Positions 8,568 to 59,750 of a stretch of DNA of 64,000 bases are shown one piece after another (the stretch's first letter is position 1; each line of letters starts with the position of its first letter). The DNA lies in contig JBARPC010000004.1 in assembly GCA_049642725.1 (NCBI GenBank), forward strand, positions 27,052 to 91,051, read 5' to 3'. A model generated the notes under the pieces. That model saw only the letters and a list, made by a program, of their open reading frames with translations. It had not been told where the DNA came from and made no database searches. The stretch comes from Minisyncoccales bacterium (GTDB lineage Bacteria > Patescibacteriota > Minisyncoccia > Minisyncoccales > JAGMDC01). A program made the translations under genes and the position numbers.

Positions 8568-8600
8568 GGAGAACAGTTCTCCTTAGGAGAACTGTTCTCT
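8568..8600. repeat. REP-like double palindrome (GGAGAACAGTTCTCC-tta-GGAGAACTGTTCTC) overlapping the gltX stop
   Basis: Two tandem 14-15 nt perfect palindromes with core GAGAACWGTTCTC. The second copy encodes the last gltX residues (REQFS) and the stop. Confidence 0.7.
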
Positions 8601-10124
8601 GGCTCCCCTTACTCTCTTTAATGTCTTCTCTTTCCCTAAAATTTCTGCGACTTCAAATGGCGGCGCAGACGCCTTTTTCCCTGTCAATGCAACCCTCAAT
8701 GGCCATAAGAGTTCTCCCCTATCCCCTGTTCTTTCAGCTTCAATCATTAGAATCTTTTCTAAGTTTTCTTTATTAAAATCTTTCTCTTCTATTTTTGACA
8801 ATATTTCTTCTAATTTGTCAAGGATTTCAAGAACCTGCTTATAATTCATATCTTTCCACTTCAACAAATTTTTATCATATTCTAATTTGTCTTTGAAAAA
8901 GAAATCAGTCAATTCAGCAATTTCTGATAAATATCTTAACCGCTCCTGATATGCCTTAACAACTTTTTTTAAATAATCGCAGCTAATAACTTCGTCTGTT
9001 TCTTTGATTTTAAACTCTGGTTTTTTTTCTTTGAATAATTCAAATTTTTGAGAACTGTTCTCCTTGGGAGAACAGTTCTCTATAGTTGCTGTCACTTGTT
9101 CTATTAAATTAGCTTTTATTAAATATGGAATACACAATTCCGTTATTTTTTTATCTGATTTCTGGCGGATATAAAAGCCGTTTAAATAATCAAGCCGTTT
9201 GACGTTGAAAACAGCACCTCCTTTTTGAATATTGTCTAAGGAAAATTCTTTAATTAAAGAGACAATATTATATATTTCTCTTTCTGTGCCTGGATTCCAG
9301 CCCAAAAAAGCCATAAAATTAATTAAGGTTTCTAGTAAGACACCTTTTTCTCTGTATTCGGAAATAGCGGTTGCTCCATGCCTTTTGCTTAATTTGCTCC
9401 TGTCCGGGCCTAAAATTAAAGGCAAATGAGCGTATTTTGGCTGGGAAAAGCCTAAGGCCTGCTGAATAAGAATTTGTTTTGGGGTATTGGAAATATGATC
9501 TTCTCCTCTAATGACATGGGAAATTTTCATTTCAAAATCATCTACAGCAGCAGCAAAATTATAAAAAGGTTTTTTAAGACCTTTACTAATAATGAAATCA
9601 CCTATTAAGCTTGAGTCAAATTCAATTTTTTCCCTGACTAAATCCTCAAAAACTATTTTTTTTACTGATTCTGGAATTTTAAACCTGATAACAAAAGGTT
9701 TTTTTTCTTTTAAATTCTTTTCAACTTCTTTTTTAGAAAGCTTTCTGCACTTGCCTGAATAAAGAAGCGCTTGACCCACAGAAATTTGATATTGTTTTTG
9801 AGCTTCTAACTCTTCCTCTGTGCAAAAACAATAATATACTTTATTTTCATCTAAGAGTTTTCTAATATATTTTTCATAAATATCTAATCTTTCACTTTGT
9901 TTATAAAATTCATCGCATTTTAATCCAAGCCATTCCAAGCTTTCCATAATGTTTTTTTCATATTCAGGCCTTGATCTTTCTGAATCAGTATCTTCAATTC
10001 TTAAAATAAACTGGCCCTGATTTTGTTTGGCAAAAATATAGTTAAAAAGAGCTGCTCTGGCAGTACCAATATGTAAAAAGCCCGTAGGAGATGGAGCAAT
10101 TCTTGTTCTAACTTTTTCAATCAT
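8583..10124 (-). CDS. gltX: Glutamyl-tRNA synthetase
   Basis: RIAPSPTGFLHIGTARAALFNY (HIGH region) and KLSKR (KMSKS-like). 513 aa, including in-frame palindromic inserts. Confidence 0.9.
   Translation of the reverse strand: MIEKVRTRIAPSPTGFLHIGTARAALFNYIFAKQNQGQFILRIEDTDSERSRPEYEKNIMESLEWLGLKCDEFYKQSERLDIYEKYIRKLLDENKVYYCFCTEEELEAQKQYQISVGQALLYSGKCRKLSKKEVEKNLKEKKPFVIRFKIPESVKKIVFEDLVREKIEFDSSLIGDFIISKGLKKPFYNFAAAVDDFEMKISHVIRGEDHISNTPKQILIQQALGFSQPKYAHLPLILGPDRSKLSKRHGATAISEYREKGVLLETLINFMAFLGWNPGTEREIYNIVSLIKEFSLDNIQKGGAVFNVKRLDYLNGFYIRQKSDKKITELCIPYLIKANLIEQVTATIENCSPKENSSQKFELFKEKKPEFKIKETDEVISCDYLKKVVKAYQERLRYLSEIAELTDFFFKDKLEYDKNLLKWKDMNYKQVLEILDKLEEILSKIEEKDFNKENLEKILMIEAERTGDRGELLWPLRVALTGKKASAPPFEVAEILGKEKTLKRVRGAREQFS
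9050..9081. repeat. REP-like double palindrome (GAGAACTGTTCTCC-ttg-GGAGAACAGTTCTCT) inserted in-frame inside gltX
   Basis: Same composite element as at 8568-8600. It encodes ENCSPKENSSQ within GluRS. Confidence 0.7.
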
Positions 10125-12438: not shown

Positions 12439-13779
12439 TTATAATTTTTTAATGTACTTTTTAAATAAATTTCCTCTTTCTTTATAATCTTTAAAAATAC
12501 CAAAACTTGGTGAAGCCGGCGACAATAAACAGATTTTCCCTTTTTCTGTATGTTTATAGGCAAATTTTACCGCTTCTTTCATATTATTCACAAAGAAAGC
12601 TTTAAATCGTTTTTTAGAAGTAATAGAAATCCAAATTTTTTTACCGGTTTCTGGAAATAAAATTAATGTTTTAACTTTACTTCTTGATATTACTTTACCC
12701 AATTCTTTAAAATCCAGTCCCCTGTCATAACCGCCTAAAATTAAGGTTTGAACATTCTTGCCCAAGGAATTCATTGCCTCTATGGCAGTTTGAGGAATAG
12801 TAGAAAGAGAATCATTGTAAAATTTAATTCCTTTATAAATACCTATAAACTCTAATCGATGCGGTAGAAGTTTAAAATTTTTAATCGCTTTGGTGATTTC
12901 TTTTAAAGAAAGCTTAAATATTTTTCCTACCTCTTTGGCTGCAGATACATTTAAGAGGTTAAATTTTCCTTTAATCGGAATTTTTTTTGCCTTTGATTTT
13001 TTAACAATTTCTTTAACGAGTTTATCTTGAGAATTAAAAATTAAGTAGTCATTTTTGGTTTGCCAGTCAGTAATATTTGCTTTGGCCGAAATATATTCTT
13101 TAAAACTTTTATAATAATCAAGGTGTTCTGGATAAATATTTAAGAAAACGGCAATATTAGGGCTTTTTTTGAGATTATATAACTGATGAGATGATAATTC
13201 ATAGACAAAGATATCATCTTTCTTAGATTTAGGCAGAAAAGATAAAACTGGTTGGCCGATATTTCCGATTAAATGAGCTTTTAATTTAGCATCTTTTAGT
13301 ATTTTATAAATTAAAGAAGCAGTGGTGCTTTTTCCTTTTGTGCCAGTAATCCCAATAGTTGTTCCAAGGCAGTTTTTAAAAAATATCTTTGTCTGTGAAG
13401 TTATCTTTCCTTGTTTTAAAGCCATTTCAACCTCTGGTAAGTGGATTGGGACACCTGGTGATTTAACAATAATATCATAGTTTTTTAATGATTTAACATA
13501 ATTTTCTCCTAGATGTAATCTAATTTTCTTATCTTTTTTTATTAAGTTTGAAAATTGAAAAGCAACCCTACGAGGAGTCCCCCGCCTTTTCGCGGAAAGG
13601 GCGGGGTCCAGGAAAATTGAAAATTCTTTTCTGTCGGCCAGTCCCAAAACTTTATTCGGAAATAATCTTCTCAAAAATTTGAAGTTATCTATTCCCTCTC
13701 TACCTAATCCTAAAATTAAGATTTTTTTGGATTTTAATTCCTCTAATTTCATTTTTTTATCATAACTTAAAATCCTCAA
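12439..13779 (-). CDS. murD: UDP-N-acetylmuramoylalanine--D-glutamate ligase
   Basis: [13 protein letters not shown]-terminal motif. Mur ligase P-loop [11 protein letters not shown]. Conserved mur-cluster context. Confidence 0.9.
13568..13613. repeat. GC-rich hairpin insert (GTCCCCCGCC-ttttcgcggaaag-GGCGGGGTCC) in-frame inside murD
   Basis: Sharp local GC spike. Encodes [13 protein letters not shown]. Stem-loop read from the sequence. Confidence 0.45.
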
Positions 13780-13823: not shown

Positions 13824-14024
13824 TTATTCTTTGTGTTTTATCCACTCTTTGCCTTTTTCTGTAAACACTGGGAAGCTGATAGAAATTAATGCCGTTACAT
13901 TTTTAGGCACTATCAGATTTTCTCCGTATGCCCAACTTATCACTACAAGGATATTCTCAATTCCATGTTTTTCTGCTAGCAAATTCAGCTTATTCAATAT
14001 CTCTCTTCTTTCTTCTTCTCCCAT
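13824..14024 (-). CDS. Small hypothetical protein (66 aa)
   Basis: Co-oriented with the flanking mur-cluster genes. Charged, protein-like composition. The antisense ORF 13816-14046 is less plausible. Confidence 0.4.
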   Translation of the reverse strand: MGEEERREILNKLNLLAEKHGIENILVVISWAYGENLIVPKNVTALISISFPVFTEKGKEWIKHKE

Positions 14025-14038
14025 TTATATCACCTCTT

Positions 14039-15511
14039 CTATTTAAGATATAACTTTCTTAAAGCTTTGTCAAAATTTTTAGGCAGATTATTCTGCTTAT
14101 TCCAGGAATTTAATATTCTTTTTGATTCTATTTCAATATTTAAATACCTTGGTAATATTCTCTTCTCAAAATAATTTAAGAGAACTGGAAGTTTGAATTT
14201 TTGTGCATATGCATTTTTTTTCAAATTTTTGTTTTCTTTAAATTTTAGATAGCTTAGATAAAAAGCGATTAAACTTTCTTTTTTTGTGCCTACGCATTCA
14301 AACGGTTTTGTTTTACTCTTTCCTATCAACTCCTTCATTATCGGCAGTAATTCTTTTTTTTCAAAAAGATTCTGGCTAAAGATTTTCATTAATTTTTTTT
14401 CTTCAATAAATGGATATAAAATTGTGAAAACAAACAAGCATTTTGAGCATTTCCCGCACCATTTGCCAGTTGATTTTTTGGTTCCAGAAGCAGTTTTATA
14501 GGCCTCATTACAGCTAAGGAAAACCGGGAAATATTTTGGTAATTTAGAGAATAATCTTGCTATTTGGATTTCATACAAAGGCCTTAGAAAACTAAAATAG
14601 TTTATATCTTTAACTAAATATTTTTTGACATAATTTCTATATTTGTTTTCAAATTCAGAACTTTTAGACCATTGATGATTGATTGTTTTGCCAAGATATT
14701 TTATATTGCCTTCATCAGCGCTTTTTTCGCAGGACATTGCTATATTGTTATGGCCGAATAAAACTCCGCAAAAAACAGCTAAATTAGAAATTACTGCTGT
14801 AATTGGCGTATGGCCGTTTAAAAATCCTTTTTGGTTTAATTTTAATAAAGCAGGATCTATCTTTCTTTGGGCAATGATTGGATTTTTAATTTTAGCAATC
14901 TTTAAAATTTTGAAATGCTCTTTTGTAGGATTAACAATAAAACAATTTTTTTCAAATTTTTTGAGCAATTCTAAGGTAACAATTGAATCTTTTCCCTCGC
15001 CCATTGGTATCAAAACATTATCTTTAAGTAAACTCACGATCGTGAACTTACTGTTATTTTTATTTATTTTATTTAGACAACATATTTTTAGAAAATCAGG
15101 TCTTGTAAAGTCAATTTTGTTTTCAAAGAAAAATTGTCCCATTCCGTTAAAGATAAAATCTTTCCACCATTTTATTTGCTGTTTATCTAAATAGCCGGCT
15201 TTTATTTCAATTATTGGGGAGCAAGCCGCTTTCCAATAACTTGGTATTTCCATTAAACCAATGTGAAAAACAAGGCTATTTAATGCACTCCCACCTACTT
15301 TATCCAAGTTTTTTTTATTAACATTTTTTATAATTATTTCCGGTTTAAAACAAATACTACGAGAACTGTTCTCGTAGTGAGAGATTTTAAAATCAAAAGA
15401 AATTTTCAAATCATTTCCAGATATTCCATAAGAATATCCCTGATAAATAAATTTCGGATATTTTTTTCTTAAAACCTCAACATTTTTCATATTATTTTTA
15501 TTATTACTCAA
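14039..15511 (-). CDS. Hypothetical protein with a PP-loop-like GEGKDS motif and a C-terminal CxxC pair; possible ATP-pyrophosphatase/amidotransferase-like enzyme
   Basis: MGEGKDSIVTLELL resembles the SGGxDS PP-loop. CGKCSKC motif. Embedded in the mur cluster. Carries an in-frame REP insert (YENSSRS). Confidence 0.4.
   Translation of the reverse strand: MSNNKNNMKNVEVLRKKYPKFIYQGYSYGISGNDLKISFDFKISHYENSSRSICFKPEIIIKNVNKKNLDKVGGSALNSLVFHIGLMEIPSYWKAACSPIIEIKAGYLDKQQIKWWKDFIFNGMGQFFFENKIDFTRPDFLKICCLNKINKNNSKFTIVSLLKDNVLIPMGEGKDSIVTLELLKKFEKNCFIVNPTKEHFKILKIAKIKNPIIAQRKIDPALLKLNQKGFLNGHTPITAVISNLAVFCGVLFGHNNIAMSCEKSADEGNIKYLGKTINHQWSKSSEFENKYRNYVKKYLVKDINYFSFLRPLYEIQIARLFSKLPKYFPVFLSCNEAYKTASGTKKSTGKWCGKCSKCLFVFTILYPFIEEKKLMKIFSQNLFEKKELLPIMKELIGKSKTKPFECVGTKKESLIAFYLSYLKFKENKNLKKNAYAQKFKLPVLLNYFEKRILPRYLNIEIESKRILNSWNKQNNLPKNFDKALRKLYLK
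15356..15378. repeat. REP palindrome ACTACGAGAACTGTTCTCGTAGT inserted in-frame in the 14039-15511 CDS
   Basis: Perfect 11-bp arms around a central T. Same element as the copies flanking the RAYT gene. Confidence 0.7.
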
Positions 15512-15580: not shown

Positions 15581-16195
15581 TTAGTAAAATGGATCCCAGG
15601 TATTATATACGATTTTTTGAGATGCTACTCTTCCGAAACATACAATAATAATTTCAATTAGAATTAGCAGTCCAAAAACCGTTAACCAATTACCCTTCAC
15701 AAATACTACTGAATCAGTGTTATAGCTTTTTACCTTAAATGCTCTTTCAAGCCAAAAGGAATCTGGTCTTTCTATGTATAGATATGTATCAGTGTAGCTC
15801 ATTATCCCAGCTCTGTTTTCAATGAAAGCATAATAGGTTTTTTCTAAAAGAGTTCCCTCTAAACCCATGGAGTTGAGGTCAGCAGTGTATCTAGTTACTT
15901 CAAAATCAACATATACTGTCTCATTCGGTTCAACTAATTCAATAAATTGGTTAGCGTCTTTACATTTCATCTCCGGCGCGCCTAATCCTCCTGCGCCGCC
16001 TAAACAAATATTTTTCACAAATTTGTTCTCCACATCTTTGATTTCAACGCCTCTCTCAATTTCTGTTTTAATCGGCAGTGTGGCTTCTCTTTCCTCATAT
16101 ACATAAGCTATTGTCACTGGTATTGCTAATATCACAAGAGCAATAACTGCAATCATTACTACCTTAAACTTTGTTTCTTTTTCCATTTTTTTCAC
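15581..16195 (-). CDS. Membrane-anchored hypothetical protein
   Basis: N-terminal and C-terminal TM helices with a predicted extracytoplasmic domain between them. Confidence 0.5.
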   Translation of the reverse strand: MKKMEKETKFKVVMIAVIALVILAIPVTIAYVYEEREATLPIKTEIERGVEIKDVENKFVKNICLGGAGGLGAPEMKCKDANQFIELVEPNETVYVDFEVTRYTADLNSMGLEGTLLEKTYYAFIENRAGIMSYTDTYLYIERPDSFWLERAFKVKSYNTDSVVFVKGNWLTVFGLLILIEIIIVCFGRVASQKIVYNTWDPFY

Positions 16196-16278: not shown

Positions 16279-17340
16279 TTAACCGAGTAAACGGATGGCT
16301 GTGCCGATGATGGCAAGAACAACTCCGATAATCCAGAAACGCATTGTTACTTGATAAGATGGCCATCCCTTTGCTTCAAAGTGATGATGTATCGGCGTGC
16401 AGAGCCAAATTTTCTTTTTCCGAAACTTTTTGGATAAAAGCTGTAATATAACAGAACTTACTTCAATTACTAATACACCTCCAATTATAGGCAAAACGAT
16501 TAGAGAGTTAGTTAAGAAAGCAACAACAGCTAAAGTAGTGGTTAAGCCCAATATTCCTGTTTCTCCCATATAGAATTTAGCCGGTGGAATATTAAACCAT
16601 AAAAATGCAAACAAGGTTCCTGTAATAGCAATACAAAAAGCAGCTAAATCCACTTTGCCTTGGGAAAAAGCAATAATAGCAAAAGCGCCGAAAATAGAAG
16701 CAAAAACTCCGCCAGCCAAGCCGTCAATACCGTCAACCACCCCGCTGCTCCAGCAGGCCAGCATAGTTACAATAAATAAAAGAATATACCAGATTCCTAA
16801 AGAAAAATCGCCCACTAAGGGAATATGCATAGAATCCCAGCCAAGCTTGTAATAGAACCACCAAGCGCCGATTATGCCAATTATAATTACCATTAGCATC
16901 CGTCTTTTAAATGCCATACCGCCGGCAATATATCTTCCTTTTCCGAAAACCTGTAAAATATCATCGGATAGTCCAACCAAGGAAGCAATTACTAATGTAA
17001 ATAAAGGAAGCCATGTTTCTCCACGGGACAAAAAATTCAAAGACTTTAACCACCAAATATCTGATGTTTTACTTATTAAATAAAATAGAAAAATAACTAC
17101 GAGAACAGAGCCCCAAATTATTAAACCTCCTGCCCTAGGCACACTCACTTCCCTGTCCTTATGCAGGCGGTAAAATACTTCAGCTTTATCTCCAGTAATA
17201 GTTTTAGTCCTTGCTTCTTTTTTCCAGAATTTGATTTTGTATAAAAACTTAATCAGGAAAGGCGCTAAAGCAATAGCGATAATTGCCGTAAAAGACGAAA
17301 TAAGAAAAATTTTAATTATACTAAAAATAAATAAAGTCAT
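16279..17340 (-). CDS. mraY: Phospho-N-acetylmuramoyl-pentapeptide transferase
   Basis: GT4 polytopic membrane protein with DGIDGLAGG and HHHFE motifs. Mur-cluster context. Confidence 0.85.
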   Translation of the reverse strand: MTLFIFSIIKIFLISSFTAIIAIALAPFLIKFLYKIKFWKKEARTKTITGDKAEVFYRLHKDREVSVPRAGGLIIWGSVLVVIFLFYLISKTSDIWWLKSLNFLSRGETWLPLFTLVIASLVGLSDDILQVFGKGRYIAGGMAFKRRMLMVIIIGIIGAWWFYYKLGWDSMHIPLVGDFSLGIWYILLFIVTMLACWSSGVVDGIDGLAGGVFASIFGAFAIIAFSQGKVDLAAFCIAITGTLFAFLWFNIPPAKFYMGETGILGLTTTLAVVAFLTNSLIVLPIIGGVLVIEVSSVILQLLSKKFRKKKIWLCTPIHHHFEAKGWPSYQVTMRFWIIGVVLAIIGTAIRLLG

Positions 17341-18334: not shown

Positions 18335-19774
18335 TCACTTAGATTTACTCTCTACGACTTTAATATGTAATTCTTTTAATTGTTCGTTAGTAACATCACT
18401 GGGTATCTCCATCATTAAGTCGCGGTTGTCCCCTGTTTTTGGAAAAGCTATTACTTCTCTAATATTCGGTTCGTTTAAGACCACTGCTAAAAATCTATCA
18501 ATTCCCGGAGCAATTCCTGCATGAGGCGGCACTCCATAACTAAATGCCTCAAAATAGTTTTTGAACTTCTTTTTAATATCTGTTTTTTTGTGGCCTAAAA
18601 CTTCAAAAACAGCAGTAAGAACATCTAAATTTGTATTTCTAATACTTCCTCCGCCAATTTCATAACCGTTTAAAACAAAATCATATTGAAAAGCTAAAAT
18701 TTTCTCTGGATTTCTCTTCATTTTTTTAATATCTTCTGTTTGCGGTTTAGTAAAAGGATGGTGCTGGGCTCCCCACTTGCCTGCCGAAGTAGCTTGCCCT
18801 GAGCCTGCCGAAGGGTGCCATTCAAACATAGGAAAATCAGTAATAAATGCGAATGCTAATTCATTTGGGTCTTTTTTATTTCTACGGAGATCCGGTTTAT
18901 CGCTTTTATGTTTTTCCATTGCTTTTTTATACGTTATTCTGGGAAAAGGGATTTTTGTAATTCTTTTTTCCGGAAATATCTTTTTTACTAATGCTATGTA
19001 TAGCTTTTCTATTAAATTCAAAATTTCTTCCTGCTCATCTATAAATGACATTTCAATATCTAATTGCGTATGCTCTGCCTGCCTGTCGCCGCGCGGGTCT
19101 TCGTCTCTTAAACATCTGGCAATTTGAAAATATTTTTCAATGCCTGCTACCATTAAAAGTTGTTTATATTGCTGTGGGCTTTGAGGCAAGGCATAAAATT
19201 TTCCCGGCTGGTTTCGCGAAGGCACTAAAAAGTCCCTGGCTCCTTCCGGTGTTGATTTTGTTAGAATCGGTGTTTCAATCTCTGTAAAACCTTGTTCAAT
19301 TAAATACTCTCTCATAAAATGAATAACTTTCTGGCGGGTTTTTAAATTATTCTGCAACCGTTCTCTTCTTAAATCCAAATAACGATATTTTAACCGCTTT
19401 TCTTCGTTTATTTCAAAACCAGAGTTTTCAATAGAAAAAGGCAGGGTTTTTGCCTTTGATAATATCTTTAAATTCTTTACTTTGATTTCTATGTTTCCAG
19501 TAGCAATTTTAGGGTTGAGCATCCCTTTTGGTCTTTTATTTACAAGACCCTCTACTTCAATTACCCATTCCGGCCTCATTGCCTGGGCTACAATATTTTT
19601 TTCAAATTCTGGTCCGAAAACCATTTGAATCAAACCAGAACTATCTCTTAAATCAATAAAAATAATCTTGCCATGGTCCCTCCGCGAGTTAATCCAACCA
19701 GCGAGTTTGACTTCTTGATTATGATATTTAATTGTTTCAGCAGACAATATCCGTTTCATTTTTTTATTATACAT
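18335..19774 (-). CDS. aspS: Aspartyl-tRNA synthetase, short form lacking the GAD insertion domain
   Basis: Class IIb motifs FEIETPILTKSTPEGARDFLVPS and QSPQQYKQLLMVAGIEKYFQIARCLRDED. C-terminal GLDR motif. Only 479 aa. Confidence 0.9.
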   Translation of the reverse strand: MYNKKMKRILSAETIKYHNQEVKLAGWINSRRDHGKIIFIDLRDSSGLIQMVFGPEFEKNIVAQAMRPEWVIEVEGLVNKRPKGMLNPKIATGNIEIKVKNLKILSKAKTLPFSIENSGFEINEEKRLKYRYLDLRRERLQNNLKTRQKVIHFMREYLIEQGFTEIETPILTKSTPEGARDFLVPSRNQPGKFYALPQSPQQYKQLLMVAGIEKYFQIARCLRDEDPRGDRQAEHTQLDIEMSFIDEQEEILNLIEKLYIALVKKIFPEKRITKIPFPRITYKKAMEKHKSDKPDLRRNKKDPNELAFAFITDFPMFEWHPSAGSGQATSAGKWGAQHHPFTKPQTEDIKKMKRNPEKILAFQYDFVLNGYEIGGGSIRNTNLDVLTAVFEVLGHKKTDIKKKFKNYFEAFSYGVPPHAGIAPGIDRFLAVVLNEPNIREVIAFPKTGDNRDLMMEIPSDVTNEQLKELHIKVVESKSK

Positions 19775-29573: not shown

Positions 29574-30140
29574 ATGGACATATATATTTCAATAGCAAAA
29601 AAAGCAGTTGAAATTTATATCAATCAAGGAGAAATTATAAAACCGCCAAAGGATCTGCCTAAAGAATTTTTAAATGAAAAAGCTGGTGTTTTTGTTAATA
29701 TTGAAAACCAGGGCAAATTACGGGGATGTATCGGCACTTATTTACCAACAAAAGAAAATATTGCCCGGGAAATTATTCATAACGCTATTGCTGCGGCTAC
29801 TGAAGATTATCGCTTCTCCCCTATTCAGGAAGAAGAACTTCCCGAGCTTTCTTATACTGTATATGTTTTAGATAAACCAGAACAAATAAAGAGCATAGAT
29901 GAATTAGATCCGAAAAAATACGGCATCCTTGTAAAATCCCAGTCCTTCTCTCCTGGCTCTGATGTTATTTTTGAACCTGCGCCAAGAGCTAATTCTAAAT
30001 CAGGATTGCTTCTGCCTGATTTAGAAGGAATAAATACCGTTGAAAAGCAAATCTCTGTTGCCTGCCAAAAAGGAGGCATAAATCCAGATCTTGAAAAAAT
30101 AATTATTTATAGATTTACAGTAGAAAAATTTGAGCAATAG
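29574..30140 (+). CDS. AMMECR1-domain protein (AmrA-like)
   Basis: AGVFVNIENQGKLRGCIGTY and IHNAIAAATEDYRFSP AMMECR1 signature. Confidence 0.8.
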   Translation: MDIYISIAKKAVEIYINQGEIIKPPKDLPKEFLNEKAGVFVNIENQGKLRGCIGTYLPTKENIAREIIHNAIAAATEDYRFSPIQEEELPELSYTVYVLDKPEQIKSIDELDPKKYGILVKSQSFSPGSDVIFEPAPRANSKSGLLLPDLEGINTVEKQISVACQKGGINPDLEKIIIYRFTVEKFEQ

Positions 30141-30145
30141 CGAAA

Positions 30146-30182
30146 ACCCCCTCCTTTTGCGCAAGCGCGAAAAGAAGGGGGT
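30146..30182 (+). terminator. GC-rich hairpin (CCCCCTCCTTTTGCGC ... GCGCGAAAAGAAGGGGG) downstream of the AMMECR1 gene
   Basis: Near-perfect inverted repeat read in the sequence. No strong T-run, so terminator function is uncertain. Confidence 0.4.
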
Positions 30183-30226
30183 GCACGACTTTGTTGCTCT
30201 TCGCTTCGCTCAGAGACAAAATCGGC

Positions 30227-31628: not shown

Positions 31629-31961
31629 ATGAACAAAAAATTGTATATTGGCGGTTTATCCTACGATACTACTGAAGATGGATTAAAAGATGCTTTTTCT
31701 AAAGCCGGCACTGTTGAATCAGCGACTATTATCATTGATAAGGTCTCTGGCCGTTCAAAAGGATTTGGCTTTGTGGAAATGGCTTCTGAAGAAGAAGCTC
31801 AAAAAGCAATGGAAATGTGGAATGAGAAAGAACTTGATGGTCGCACTCTCACTGTGAATGAAGCTCGCCCTTTGGAGGCTCGTCCTCAAGGGAGAGATTT
31901 CAATCGCGGCGGCGGAGGTGGCCGGGATTCTAGGAGGAATGACCGTAATAACCGTTGGTAA
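31629..31961 (+). CDS. RRM-domain RNA-binding protein with a Gly/Arg-rich tail
   Basis: RNP2 LYIGGL and RNP1 KGFGFVEM motifs. C-terminal RGGGGGRD. Confidence 0.8.
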   Translation: MNKKLYIGGLSYDTTEDGLKDAFSKAGTVESATIIIDKVSGRSKGFGFVEMASEEEAQKAMEMWNEKELDGRTLTVNEARPLEARPQGRDFNRGGGGGRDSRRNDRNNRW

Positions 31962-58963: not shown

Positions 58964-58986
58964 ACTACGAGAACAGTTCTCGTAGT
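58964..58986. repeat. REP palindrome ACTACGAGAACAGTTCTCGTAGT (GTAG-type), 3' flank of the RAYT gene
   Basis: Perfect 11-bp arms. Preceded by a CCCCGT...ACGGGG hairpin plus T-run at 58906-58950. Confidence 0.75.
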
Positions 58987-58988
58987 GT

Positions 58989-59699
58989 TTAGTTTATTAA
59001 TATTTCTTTGAAATTAGAATCAGCCATTTGTTTTTTAAGCGAAATCCATTCTTTAACAAAATGACGGCTGTTATCTATACTGCCCATTAAGTTAGATAAT
59101 AACTCTCTGTTTGTTAATAAAGGATAATTCTTCTTGCCCAAATAATCAGGATAGCTTGACCATTTATAGTTTTCTAAAAATTTAATAACATCTTCTATAT
59201 TTTTGGTTTTTATCCCCTCTTCTTTCCATTTAGGAGCTATAATAGCTACAGGATTGGTATGAATGTAAACAAATAATGTTTTTAATTGCTCATCGTTTTT
59301 TACAATAACTGCCCTGAATCTCCCGTCAAAAACATGGCCCTTTCTTTCGTATTTCTTATTATAATACATTCCATATCCAGCTCCAATCTTTCTCATAAAC
59401 TTACTAATCCCTTGGCCTCTAACTTGTTTAATTAATAGATGAACATGATTTGGCATTAAACAAAAAGTCAAAATTTCCACCAACATTTTTCTTTCCTTCT
59501 TTATTCTACCACTACGAGAACTGTTCTCGTAGTGTTGACGATAAGACCAAATAGTGGGATTTTTGTCGTTAAATTCAAATAAATTATGAAGAGAACGAAA
59601 ATAATCCCTTTCGTCTCTAAAAAGCTTCATTCCTTCCACTGCCCTAATTACAATATGGTATATTTCTCCGTTTACTAATGGTGGTCTTTTAATTGGCAT
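58989..59699 (-). mobile_element. REP-associated tyrosine transposase (RAYT; IS200/IS605-family Y1 HuH transposase TnpA)
   Basis: HuH motif CLMPNHVHLLIKQ and catalytic Tyr motif YIHTNPV. Flanked on both sides by the 23-nt REP palindrome. Confidence 0.8.
59511..59533. repeat. REP palindrome ACTACGAGAACTGTTCTCGTAGT lying in-frame inside the RAYT CDS (encodes YENSSRS)
   Basis: Identical to the flanking REPs. Located in the N-terminal third of the transposase gene. Confidence 0.75.
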
Positions 59700-59727: not shown

Positions 59728-59750
59728 ACTACGAGAACTGTTCTCGTAGT
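59728..59750. repeat. REP palindrome ACTACGAGAACTGTTCTCGTAGT, 5' flank of the RAYT gene
   Basis: Lies between the RAYT start (59699) and the stop of the adjacent CaCA gene (59753). Confidence 0.75.

Follow-up and report, generated by a model that had tools for sequence, protein, structure and literature searches.

We analyzed a 64-kb stretch of DNA from Minisyncoccales (Patescibacteria), called the window throughout, and focused on an open reading frame (ORF) that lies within its cluster of mur genes and carries, in frame, a short repetitive extragenic palindrome (REP). The window has a GC content of 33% and is about 92% coding. A preliminary description of this DNA had placed a 490-aa ORF between murD and mraY and had pointed out a GEGKDS motif and a C-terminal CxxC pair in its product. 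All of these are present on the minus strand: the motif comprises residues 171–176, and the cysteine pair belongs to a C352-x2-C355-x2-C358 cluster within WCGKCSKC at residues 351–358 (Table 1). The genes are arranged in one direction as gltX, murG, ftsW, a murD-like gene, a 66-aa ORF, the 490-aa ORF, a 204-aa ORF, mraY, a D-Ala-D-Ala carboxypeptidase-like gene and aspS. The two small ORFs intervene, so that the 490-aa ORF is not strictly adjacent to a murD-type gene or to mraY. In most relatives mraY abuts the homologous gene; the window instead has the 204-aa ORF, for which we found no Pfam or NCBIfam match and no homolog among the fetched loci. The 66-aa ORF has a 47%-identical counterpart at the same position in a relative (L083). 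A 100%-identical NCBI protein (P0001; 483 aa, starting at M8, nt 15490) was deposited as a 'hypothetical protein' from a Minisyncoccales metagenome-assembled genome.

The 490-aa ORF has one NCBIfam match, to the profile hidden Markov model (HMM) NF041275 (UDP-N-acetyl-alpha-D-muramoyl-L-alanyl-L-glutamate epimerase, MurL), with an E-value of 1.1e-76 over residues 86–438 (353 residues). The Pfam domains PF26299 (MurL_N) and PF26298 (MurL_epimerase_C) are precomputed for the identical protein P0001 and for 120 of its 120 best homologs. Judged by these sequence matches, the ORF belongs to the known MurL family, and we refer to it as murL. MurL was first found as XOO_1319 in Xanthomonas oryzae (EC 5.1.1.23), where the neighbor XOO_1320 is MurD2, a ligase that couples L-Glu, not D-Glu, with UDP-MurNAc-L-Ala; MurL turns the MurD2 product into its D-Glu form, in one direction only and with the conversion of one ATP to AMP, and according to its discoverers it 'lacks known conserved domains' (PMC8788868, PMC5808125). 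We scanned one genome per species and matched at least 588 species representatives, whereas published reviews of MurL name few genera. The counts over 80 species given below refer to the best 80 of these at least 588 matched loci, which cover Patescibacteria, Bacteroidales, Acidobacteriota, Rokubacteria, Methylomirabilia, Binatia and Proteobacteria. Closed Patescibacteria genomes with a murL gene include CP179889.1 and OZ246399.1. In the open-access literature, we found no paper that ties MurL or MurD2 to Patescibacteria, or MurL to a PP-loop.

A MurD homolog is located 260 bp downstream of the window's murL on the same strand, and a MurD homolog follows murL on the same strand in 69 of the 80 species, at a distance of 300 bp or less in 52 of them. 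The gene is thus conserved in the mur clusters of relatives, a point that the preliminary description had left to be checked. For 4 of the 11 loci without a murD after murL, the locus sequence stops less than 600 bp past the gene; in the 7 kb downstream of murL in L009, we detected no murD. The order aspS-dac-mraY-murL-murD-ftsW-murG-gltX is fully kept in Paceibacteria-like relatives. The arrangement of murL and murD in relatives is that of XOO_1319 and XOO_1320; unlike XOO_1319, the window gene is embedded in a mraY-murL-murD2-ftsW-murG cluster. Separately, 2–4 kb of extra DNA lies between murL and murD2 in L003, L007, L008 and L037.

To read the MurD2 signature, we aligned the ligases linked to MurL and the MurD of E. 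coli. The window ligase has E at D182, R at K348, P at A414, F at L416 and L at K319, and the MurL-linked ligases carry Glu at the D182 position in 64 of 70 cases, Arg at K348 in 68 of 68 and Leu or Ile at K319 in 67 of 68. Four residues, Glu, Arg, Pro and Phe, set MurD2 apart; the substitutions E197D/R358K switch MurD2 to D-Glu, and K319T makes E. coli MurD accept L-Glu (PMC8788868). Because its signature residues match this published set, which it has in common with XOO_1320 (PMC8788868), the neighboring ligase is assigned to the MurD2 type, with a predicted specificity for L-Glu. The window pair resembles XOO_1319/XOO_1320 in family, by HMM and Pfam domains, and in the linkage of murL to murD2. 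A tblastn search with E. coli MurI gave no match, either in the window or among the fetched loci, which is weak evidence because these sequences cover only part of the genome.

From the roles of MurL and MurD2, it follows that the pair would replace glutamate racemase. We therefore arrive, with a probability of about 0.85, at the joint reading that the ORF is murL, that the murL/murD2 pair replaces glutamate racemase in supplying D-Glu for peptidoglycan, and that the in-frame REP is a tolerated insert.

Table 1. Features of the 64-kb window discussed in the text, with positions counted along the window.
Feature	Position	Strand	Details
31-nt double palindrome	8569..8599		overlaps last codons and stop of gltX; supplies C-terminal REQFS
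31-nt double palindrome, REP core GAGAACWGTTCTC	9050..9080		in frame in gltX (ENCSPKENSS)
murD2-type ligase	12439..13779	-	TIGR01087, 302 bits; MurD2 signature residues
66-aa ORF, murL/murD2 interval	13824..14024	-	no family match
murL-family coding sequence	14039..15511	-	490 aa from TTG start; NF041275, PF26299 and PF26298
Predicted PP-loop (QueC-like) ATP-pyrophosphatase domain	14402..15040	-	residues 158–370; AlphaFold2 domain model, mean predicted local distance difference test (pLDDT) 84.4; Foldseek
C352-x2-C355-x2-C358 motif	14438..14458	-	with C334, likely metal (Zn) site
PP-loop motif G171-E-G-K-D-S176	14984..15001	-	family consensus GGGKDS; aligns to TtuA SGGKDS
REP palindrome in murL	15356..15378		11-bp stem; read H45-YENSSRS-52 (Y46–S52)
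204-aa ORF, mraY/murL interval	15581..16195	-	N-terminal hydrophobic segment
mraY	16279..17340	-	TIGR00445, E = 4.7e-50, 170.9 bits, slightly under curated cut-off of 192
REP copy	58964..58986		2 bp after RAYT stop codon
REP-associated tyrosine transposase (RAYT)	58989..59699	-	PF01797, E = 1.8e-11; NF047646 REP_Tyr_transpos, E = 4e-12
REP copy within RAYT coding sequence	59511..59533		codons ~56–63, read HYENSSRS
REP copy	59728..59750		~28 bp upstream of RAYT start codon

The preliminary description had also claimed a PP-loop, a claim that it left to structure prediction to overturn; we ran the prediction and found a PP-loop fold. Using an AlphaFold2 (AF2) model of residues 158–370, the best Foldseek match in the PDB is QueC (2pg3, E = 9.5e-7, TM scores 0.59/0.57), with a second QueC structure also matched (3bl5, E = 6.7e-6, TM scores 0.60/0.64), followed by TtuA, argininosuccinate synthase (ArgG), LarE, NAD synthetase and NMN synthetase, and by TilS just beyond (E = 1.9e-3). 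PP-loop ATP pyrophosphatases account for all 20 matches at E ≤ 1e-3. Independently, a sequence profile built across several phyla (A3) matches TtuA PH0300 (E = 2.3e-6) and, more weakly, MJ0690 and MnmA, and its alignment to TtuA sits on the PP-loop ('lvlvggGKDsvvt' versus 'LVAVSGGKDSAVT'; the TtuA loop is VSGGKDSAVT). Weak Pfam matches to MnmA, PAPS reductase and QueC were counted toward a PP-loop, and a PDB sequence search with the single window protein gave no match. In the AF2 model, the window's PMGEGKDS is located between a strand (163–170) and a helix (174–182), and G173 and D175 are kept in 79 of the 80 species. The domain model and the profile thus support a PP-loop ATP-pyrophosphatase fold. 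Such a fold agrees with the published ATP-to-AMP requirement of XOO_1319, and would therefore account for the MurL chemistry.

The likeness to QueC, TtuA, LarE, ArgG and TilS consists of the core fold (TM score about 0.6) and of the strand-GxGKDS-helix nucleotide loop. As QueC and TtuA are the closest structural and sequence neighbors, and two homologs (P0021 and P0040) are named '7-cyano-7-deazaguanine synthase' in their JGI source, the protein could be read as an enzyme of nucleoside or tRNA modification whose place in the mur cluster is accidental. We find this scarcely credible. The likeness is confined to the PP-loop core, with an identity to the window protein of just 12–17%, and the match to the MurL HMM is better than those to QueC and TtuA by about 70 orders of magnitude. 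Beyond this core, the window protein has an additional domain at its N-terminus and a helical region at its C-terminus, and both MurL_N and the helical region are specific to its family. In addition, the pairing with murD is maintained across phyla.

We next consider the conserved residues. Conservation reaches at least 95% in the 80 species for G173, D175, N232-G-H-T-P236, E262, S264, H279, Q280, K283 and E288, and likewise for S333-C334-N335, W351-C352, C355, K357, C358, P403, C406 and C97; C334, C352, C355 and C358 are invariant (80 of 80). A C-x2-C-x2-C cluster follows the core in both QueC and the window protein, and from the fold match we liken the window cluster to the zinc site of QueC. 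By this analogy, C334 and C352/C355/C358 probably hold a structural metal (Zn).

The epimerization mechanism that we infer begins at this QueC-like domain. It would adenylate the alpha-carboxylate of the terminal L-Glu, converting ATP to acyl-AMP and PPi, which is likely the first MurL step by analogy with other PP-loop enzymes, where carboxylate adenylation is likely the common chemistry. Formation of the acyl-AMP would acidify the C-alpha proton, invariant residues (candidates are C97, C406, H234 and H279) would invert the center, and hydrolysis would then free AMP and the D-product. A mechanism of adenylation, inversion and hydrolysis was hypothesized by the discoverers of MurL. The outcome differs from that of the other PP-loop enzymes, which yield an amide, nitrile or thio-carboxylate, whereas MurL epimerizes and hydrolyzes.

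The same chemistry makes the amidotransferase proposal of the preliminary description mechanistically close. It suggested that the protein could be an amidotransferase acting on the lipid II stem peptide, by analogy with MurT/GatD or with the AsnB-type amidation of meso-diaminopimelate. Such an enzyme would amidate a stem-peptide carboxylate by chemistry resembling that of QueC or AsnB, in which adenylation precedes an attack by ammonia. Two observations fit this proposal: QueC, the nearest fold, adenylates a carboxylate and then adds ammonia, and the gene is located in the mur cluster. However, Pfam and NCBIfam scans found no glutaminase domain or partner, Asn_synthase or MurT-type domain in the ORF, in the 66-aa or 204-aa ORF or in the neighbors scanned, with no Asn_synthase match even at E ≤ 10, and the sole neighbor with a Mur-ligase fold is a full MurD homolog, not MurT. 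The characterized family members are epimerases that require just ATP and Mg2+ (PMC8788868, PMC5808125). The strict pairing with an L-Glu-type ligase is explained by epimerization, not by amidation. We consider an amidating enzyme very improbable: family membership, the missing glutaminase and the MurD2-type neighbor all speak against it. The part of the proposal that assigned the gene to stem-peptide synthesis stands, and the part that assigned it to amidation does not.

Several observations weigh against the MurL reading with its PP-loop fold. The NF041275 score is 258 bits, compared to an equivalog cut-off of 700, for a Xanthomonadales-specific model, and the match leaves out the first 85 and the last 50 residues. 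A local Pfam scan of the window protein gave no match even at E ≤ 10, the MurL models apparently not being in that copy, and the Pfam assignment rests on the precomputed annotation for this reason. Foldseek matches to the full-length AF2 model (pLDDT 76) are weak (best E = 0.046) and mix PP-loop proteins (NMN synthetase, TtuA, MJ0690 and GMP synthetase) with short-chain dehydrogenase/reductase Rossmann dehydrogenases; the fold was assigned from the domain-only model, and the full-length model left it ambiguous. The first Ser of the canonical SGGxDS is replaced in the family by Gly or another residue. The window lineage, Patescibacteria, is distant from the assayed enzymes of Xanthomonas, Micromonospora and Salinispora. 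As a point of comparison, the window protein differs from XOO_1319 by a REP-encoded loop and a longer C-terminus.

The REP within murL had been described as a 23-nt repeat read as YENSSRS, and the match is exact. ACTACGAGAACTGTTCTCGTAGT is an exact 23-nt palindrome that occurs at 15356, 58964, 59511 and 59728 in the window (4 sites versus 0 expected from 100 shuffles), and the copy at 59511 is also read as YENSSRS. Its hairpin has a folding free energy of -9.9 kcal/mol (z = -5.8), the repeats are 23–25 nt long, and the sequence ends in ...CGTAGT. RAYT-associated REPs end in GTAG, and both in-frame intragenic REPs of the GTAG class and Rickettsia palindromic elements (RPEs) have been documented (PMC3733652). 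Its sequence places the palindrome among GTAG-type REPs, in one family with the repeats that flank a RAYT gene about 43 kb away. It resembles the documented elements in being a short palindromic repeat that ends in GTAG, in flanking a RAYT gene (a REPtron) and in having some copies translated in frame within known, presumably functional proteins (Di Nocera et al. 2013, PMC3733652). It differs from them in its host, an ultra-small Patescibacteria genome of 33% GC, in having GTAG in both stem arms, in its length of 23–25 nt, in being AT-rich for a REP, and in the in-frame copy within the RAYT gene itself. Two of the copies are not extragenic, as the one at 15356 lies within murL and the one at 59511 within RAYT. 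The in-frame murL REP is a fresh example of a documented phenomenon.

In the MurL_N domain, the REP substitutes for a two-residue beta-hairpin turn and adds about 6 residues. The full-length AF2 model shows the insert as a loop between strands 34–43 and 53–55, with a confidence below that of its flanks. The short turn, xEPDIxFxP, is found in 79 of the 80 species, and a related insert only in L001. Short turns are seen in 84 of the 120 closest homologs; the other 36 have inserts of many kinds, some of them REP-like (YENxSRS) and others unrelated; the inserts are scattered over a neighbor-joining tree, where sister sequences differ in their presence. Because the inserts are varied and scattered, and sister sequences differ, the turn is evidently permissive and has taken up inserts repeatedly. 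A copy from the REP family that flanks RAYT would have landed in this permissive beta-turn in one of two stop-free frames, and would survive there as roughly 6 extra residues that the protein tolerates. Of the three REP frames, one is interrupted by TAG, and genes of related metagenomic contigs make use of both stop-free frames. The REP often has AAT on one side and ATT on the other (AAT|REP|ATT). Exact REP copies occur in 38 metagenome contigs, where they are intergenic, in 5′ untranslated regions, or in frame in real genes. The in-frame copies are read as TTRTVLVV in an MltG-like protein and in peptidyl-tRNA hydrolase (Pth) and as HYENRSRS in a 536-aa membrane protein, and others lie in RAYT orthologs.

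Two further explanations were rejected. YENSSRS is not a conserved peptide motif, since other genes translate the palindrome as TTRTVLVV and the frame of the internal palindrome varies among RAYT orthologs. An ancient insert, orthologous in all of its carriers, was rejected as the sole explanation, since its presence on the neighbor-joining tree is patchy and unrelated inserts occupy the same turn.

Alternatively, the murL REP could be a maintained cis-element, for example a hairpin acting early in the gene to attenuate its transcription or translation, or a site for RAYT binding or processing. The 11-bp stem is intact in L084, whose MurL is 63% identical and whose gene neighborhood is different, with only a loop base changed. 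In another relative (P0002), the murL copy is TACGAGGACAGACCTCGC, and its 15-nt core, CGAGGACAGACCTCG, is common to a REP beside the RAYT P0122. Codon usage in the insert departs from what is typical of a 33%-GC genome and, as one more point against a tolerated insert, the coding-strand hairpin is followed by a T-rich stretch, ATTTGTTTTA, which matches a terminator-like pattern. However, the T-rich tail is not found in other relatives, and AT-rich DNA often yields terminator-like matches (6 observed versus 2.7 expected). Of the 80 species, 79 lack the insert, as do 84 of the 120 closest homologs, neighboring tree branches differ, and the unrelated inserts that other lineages carry in the same turn favor a permissive site over a required element. 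We therefore regard a maintained cis-element as unlikely and, because the distribution is patchy, read the murL REP as a tolerated passenger.

The murL copy of P0002 also bears on the origin of these inserts. Its core CGAGGACAGACCTCG differs from the window REP at 3 positions, 2 of which form a compensatory pair, and the one other place where it occurs among 130 loci is the REP immediately downstream of the RAYT P0122. P0002 and P0122 appear to come from the same organism. Because this relative's copy carries the REP variant of that genome, the murL REP may be refreshed from the RAYT-linked population.

The RAYT gene of the window matches NF047646 better than it matches IS200, and its translation contains the HVH and YIHTNP motifs of a Y1 (HUH) transposase; it is the probable mobilizing enzyme of the REP family. 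REPs flank it on both sides, which is a REPtron arrangement. At E ≤ 1e-5, the RAYT family counts 2252 homologs, which come almost entirely from Patescibacteria and have lengths of about 230–250 aa. An alignment of 27 members shows a hypervariable stretch after the invariant R54, with peptides that appear to be encoded by palindromes, such as YENSSRS, YENGSRD, xTRTVLVx, PRTVLG, ARNVLA and SRTVLD, whose outer residues co-vary (T-V, P-G, A-A, S-D) as single base-pair exchanges would give. We compared 11 RAYT loci (L123–L126, L131–L133, L100, L106, L107 and L116) with at least 8 different REP sequences, including that of L132, whose core is wholly different (GTCGGGAT...ATCCCGAC). Each of the 11 loci has its own locus-specific palindrome both immediately upstream of RAYT and in frame at codons 54–60, and 10 of the 11 have a copy immediately downstream. 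The arm identity between internal and flanking REPs is 0.88 within a locus, compared to 0.40–0.47 between loci, and the internal REP is read in different frames by different RAYT orthologs.

The co-variation of the internal copy with its flanks, together with the differing frames, points to maintenance at the level of DNA or RNA. One possibility is that the transposase regulates itself through its own recognition hairpin, or that the internal copy is a self-limiting cleavage site. More broadly, we tentatively entertain, as a doubtful extension, that in this lineage of Patescibacteria the REPs form an active population maintained by RAYT, in which intragenic copies are not simply relics. The open-access literature yielded no paper on a cognate REP inside RAYT, nor one that links RAYT or REPIN with Patescibacteria. 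A RAYT profile search against the PDB gave weak matches to ISDra2 TnpA (E of about 0.06), and the REP-encoded loop could not be mapped onto a solved RAYT. At L126 (1–3941), precomputed Pfam annotation places a LAGLIDADG-containing intein in the PEP-utilizing enzyme (PPDK-like) that is encoded beside RAYT.

Other palindromes lie in genes of the same cluster. Both double palindromes of gltX are made of two GAGAACWGTTCTC copies. L083 has the insert of 9050–9080 in its gltX as well, altered by nothing more than a synonymous change in the loop, and the other relatives lack it. In murD2, a GC-rich perfect hairpin at 13557–13614 (folding free energy of about -25 kcal/mol) encodes an in-frame insert at residues ~56–74; it belongs to a palindrome family other than the REP, and the insert is not found in 69 other MurL-linked MurD proteins. 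In aspS, a GC-rich hairpin at 18754–18825 (about -24 kcal/mol) encodes 'PSAGSGQATSAGK', roughly 8 residues more than most relatives have, and L009, L015 and L083 carry different inserts at the same spot. Two further GC-rich, strongly folding islands are located at 30140–30189 (-24.5 kcal/mol) and 31862–31941 (-34.5 kcal/mol), the former resembling the murD2 hairpin (CCCCC...TTTTCGCG...GGGGG). In the Parcubacteria relative L083, the gene at 1395–2318 has precomputed Pfam matches to Zn_Ribbon_TF and TFIIB, which are unusual in a bacterial genome.

The observations at this locus are real and are largely explained by known kinds of genes and elements; what deserves to be kept is how widely the pathway is distributed, the assigned fold and the REP inside RAYT. 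A protein that is publicly called 'hypothetical', or sometimes 'QueC', receives an annotation as MurL, one of the two enzymes of the MurD2/MurL pathway that yields the D-glutamate of peptidoglycan. The MurD2/MurL gene pair is conserved in Patescibacteria and in several other phyla, far more widely than the few genera named in reviews would indicate, and the predicted QueC-like PP-loop domain with its cysteine cluster would give a structural reason for the ATP-to-AMP requirement of MurL. REP/RAYT elements occur in ultra-small genomes, where they repeatedly place in-frame inserts in essential genes, and these in-frame REPs bear on gene calling, on alignments and on how protein 'insertions' in such genomes are judged.

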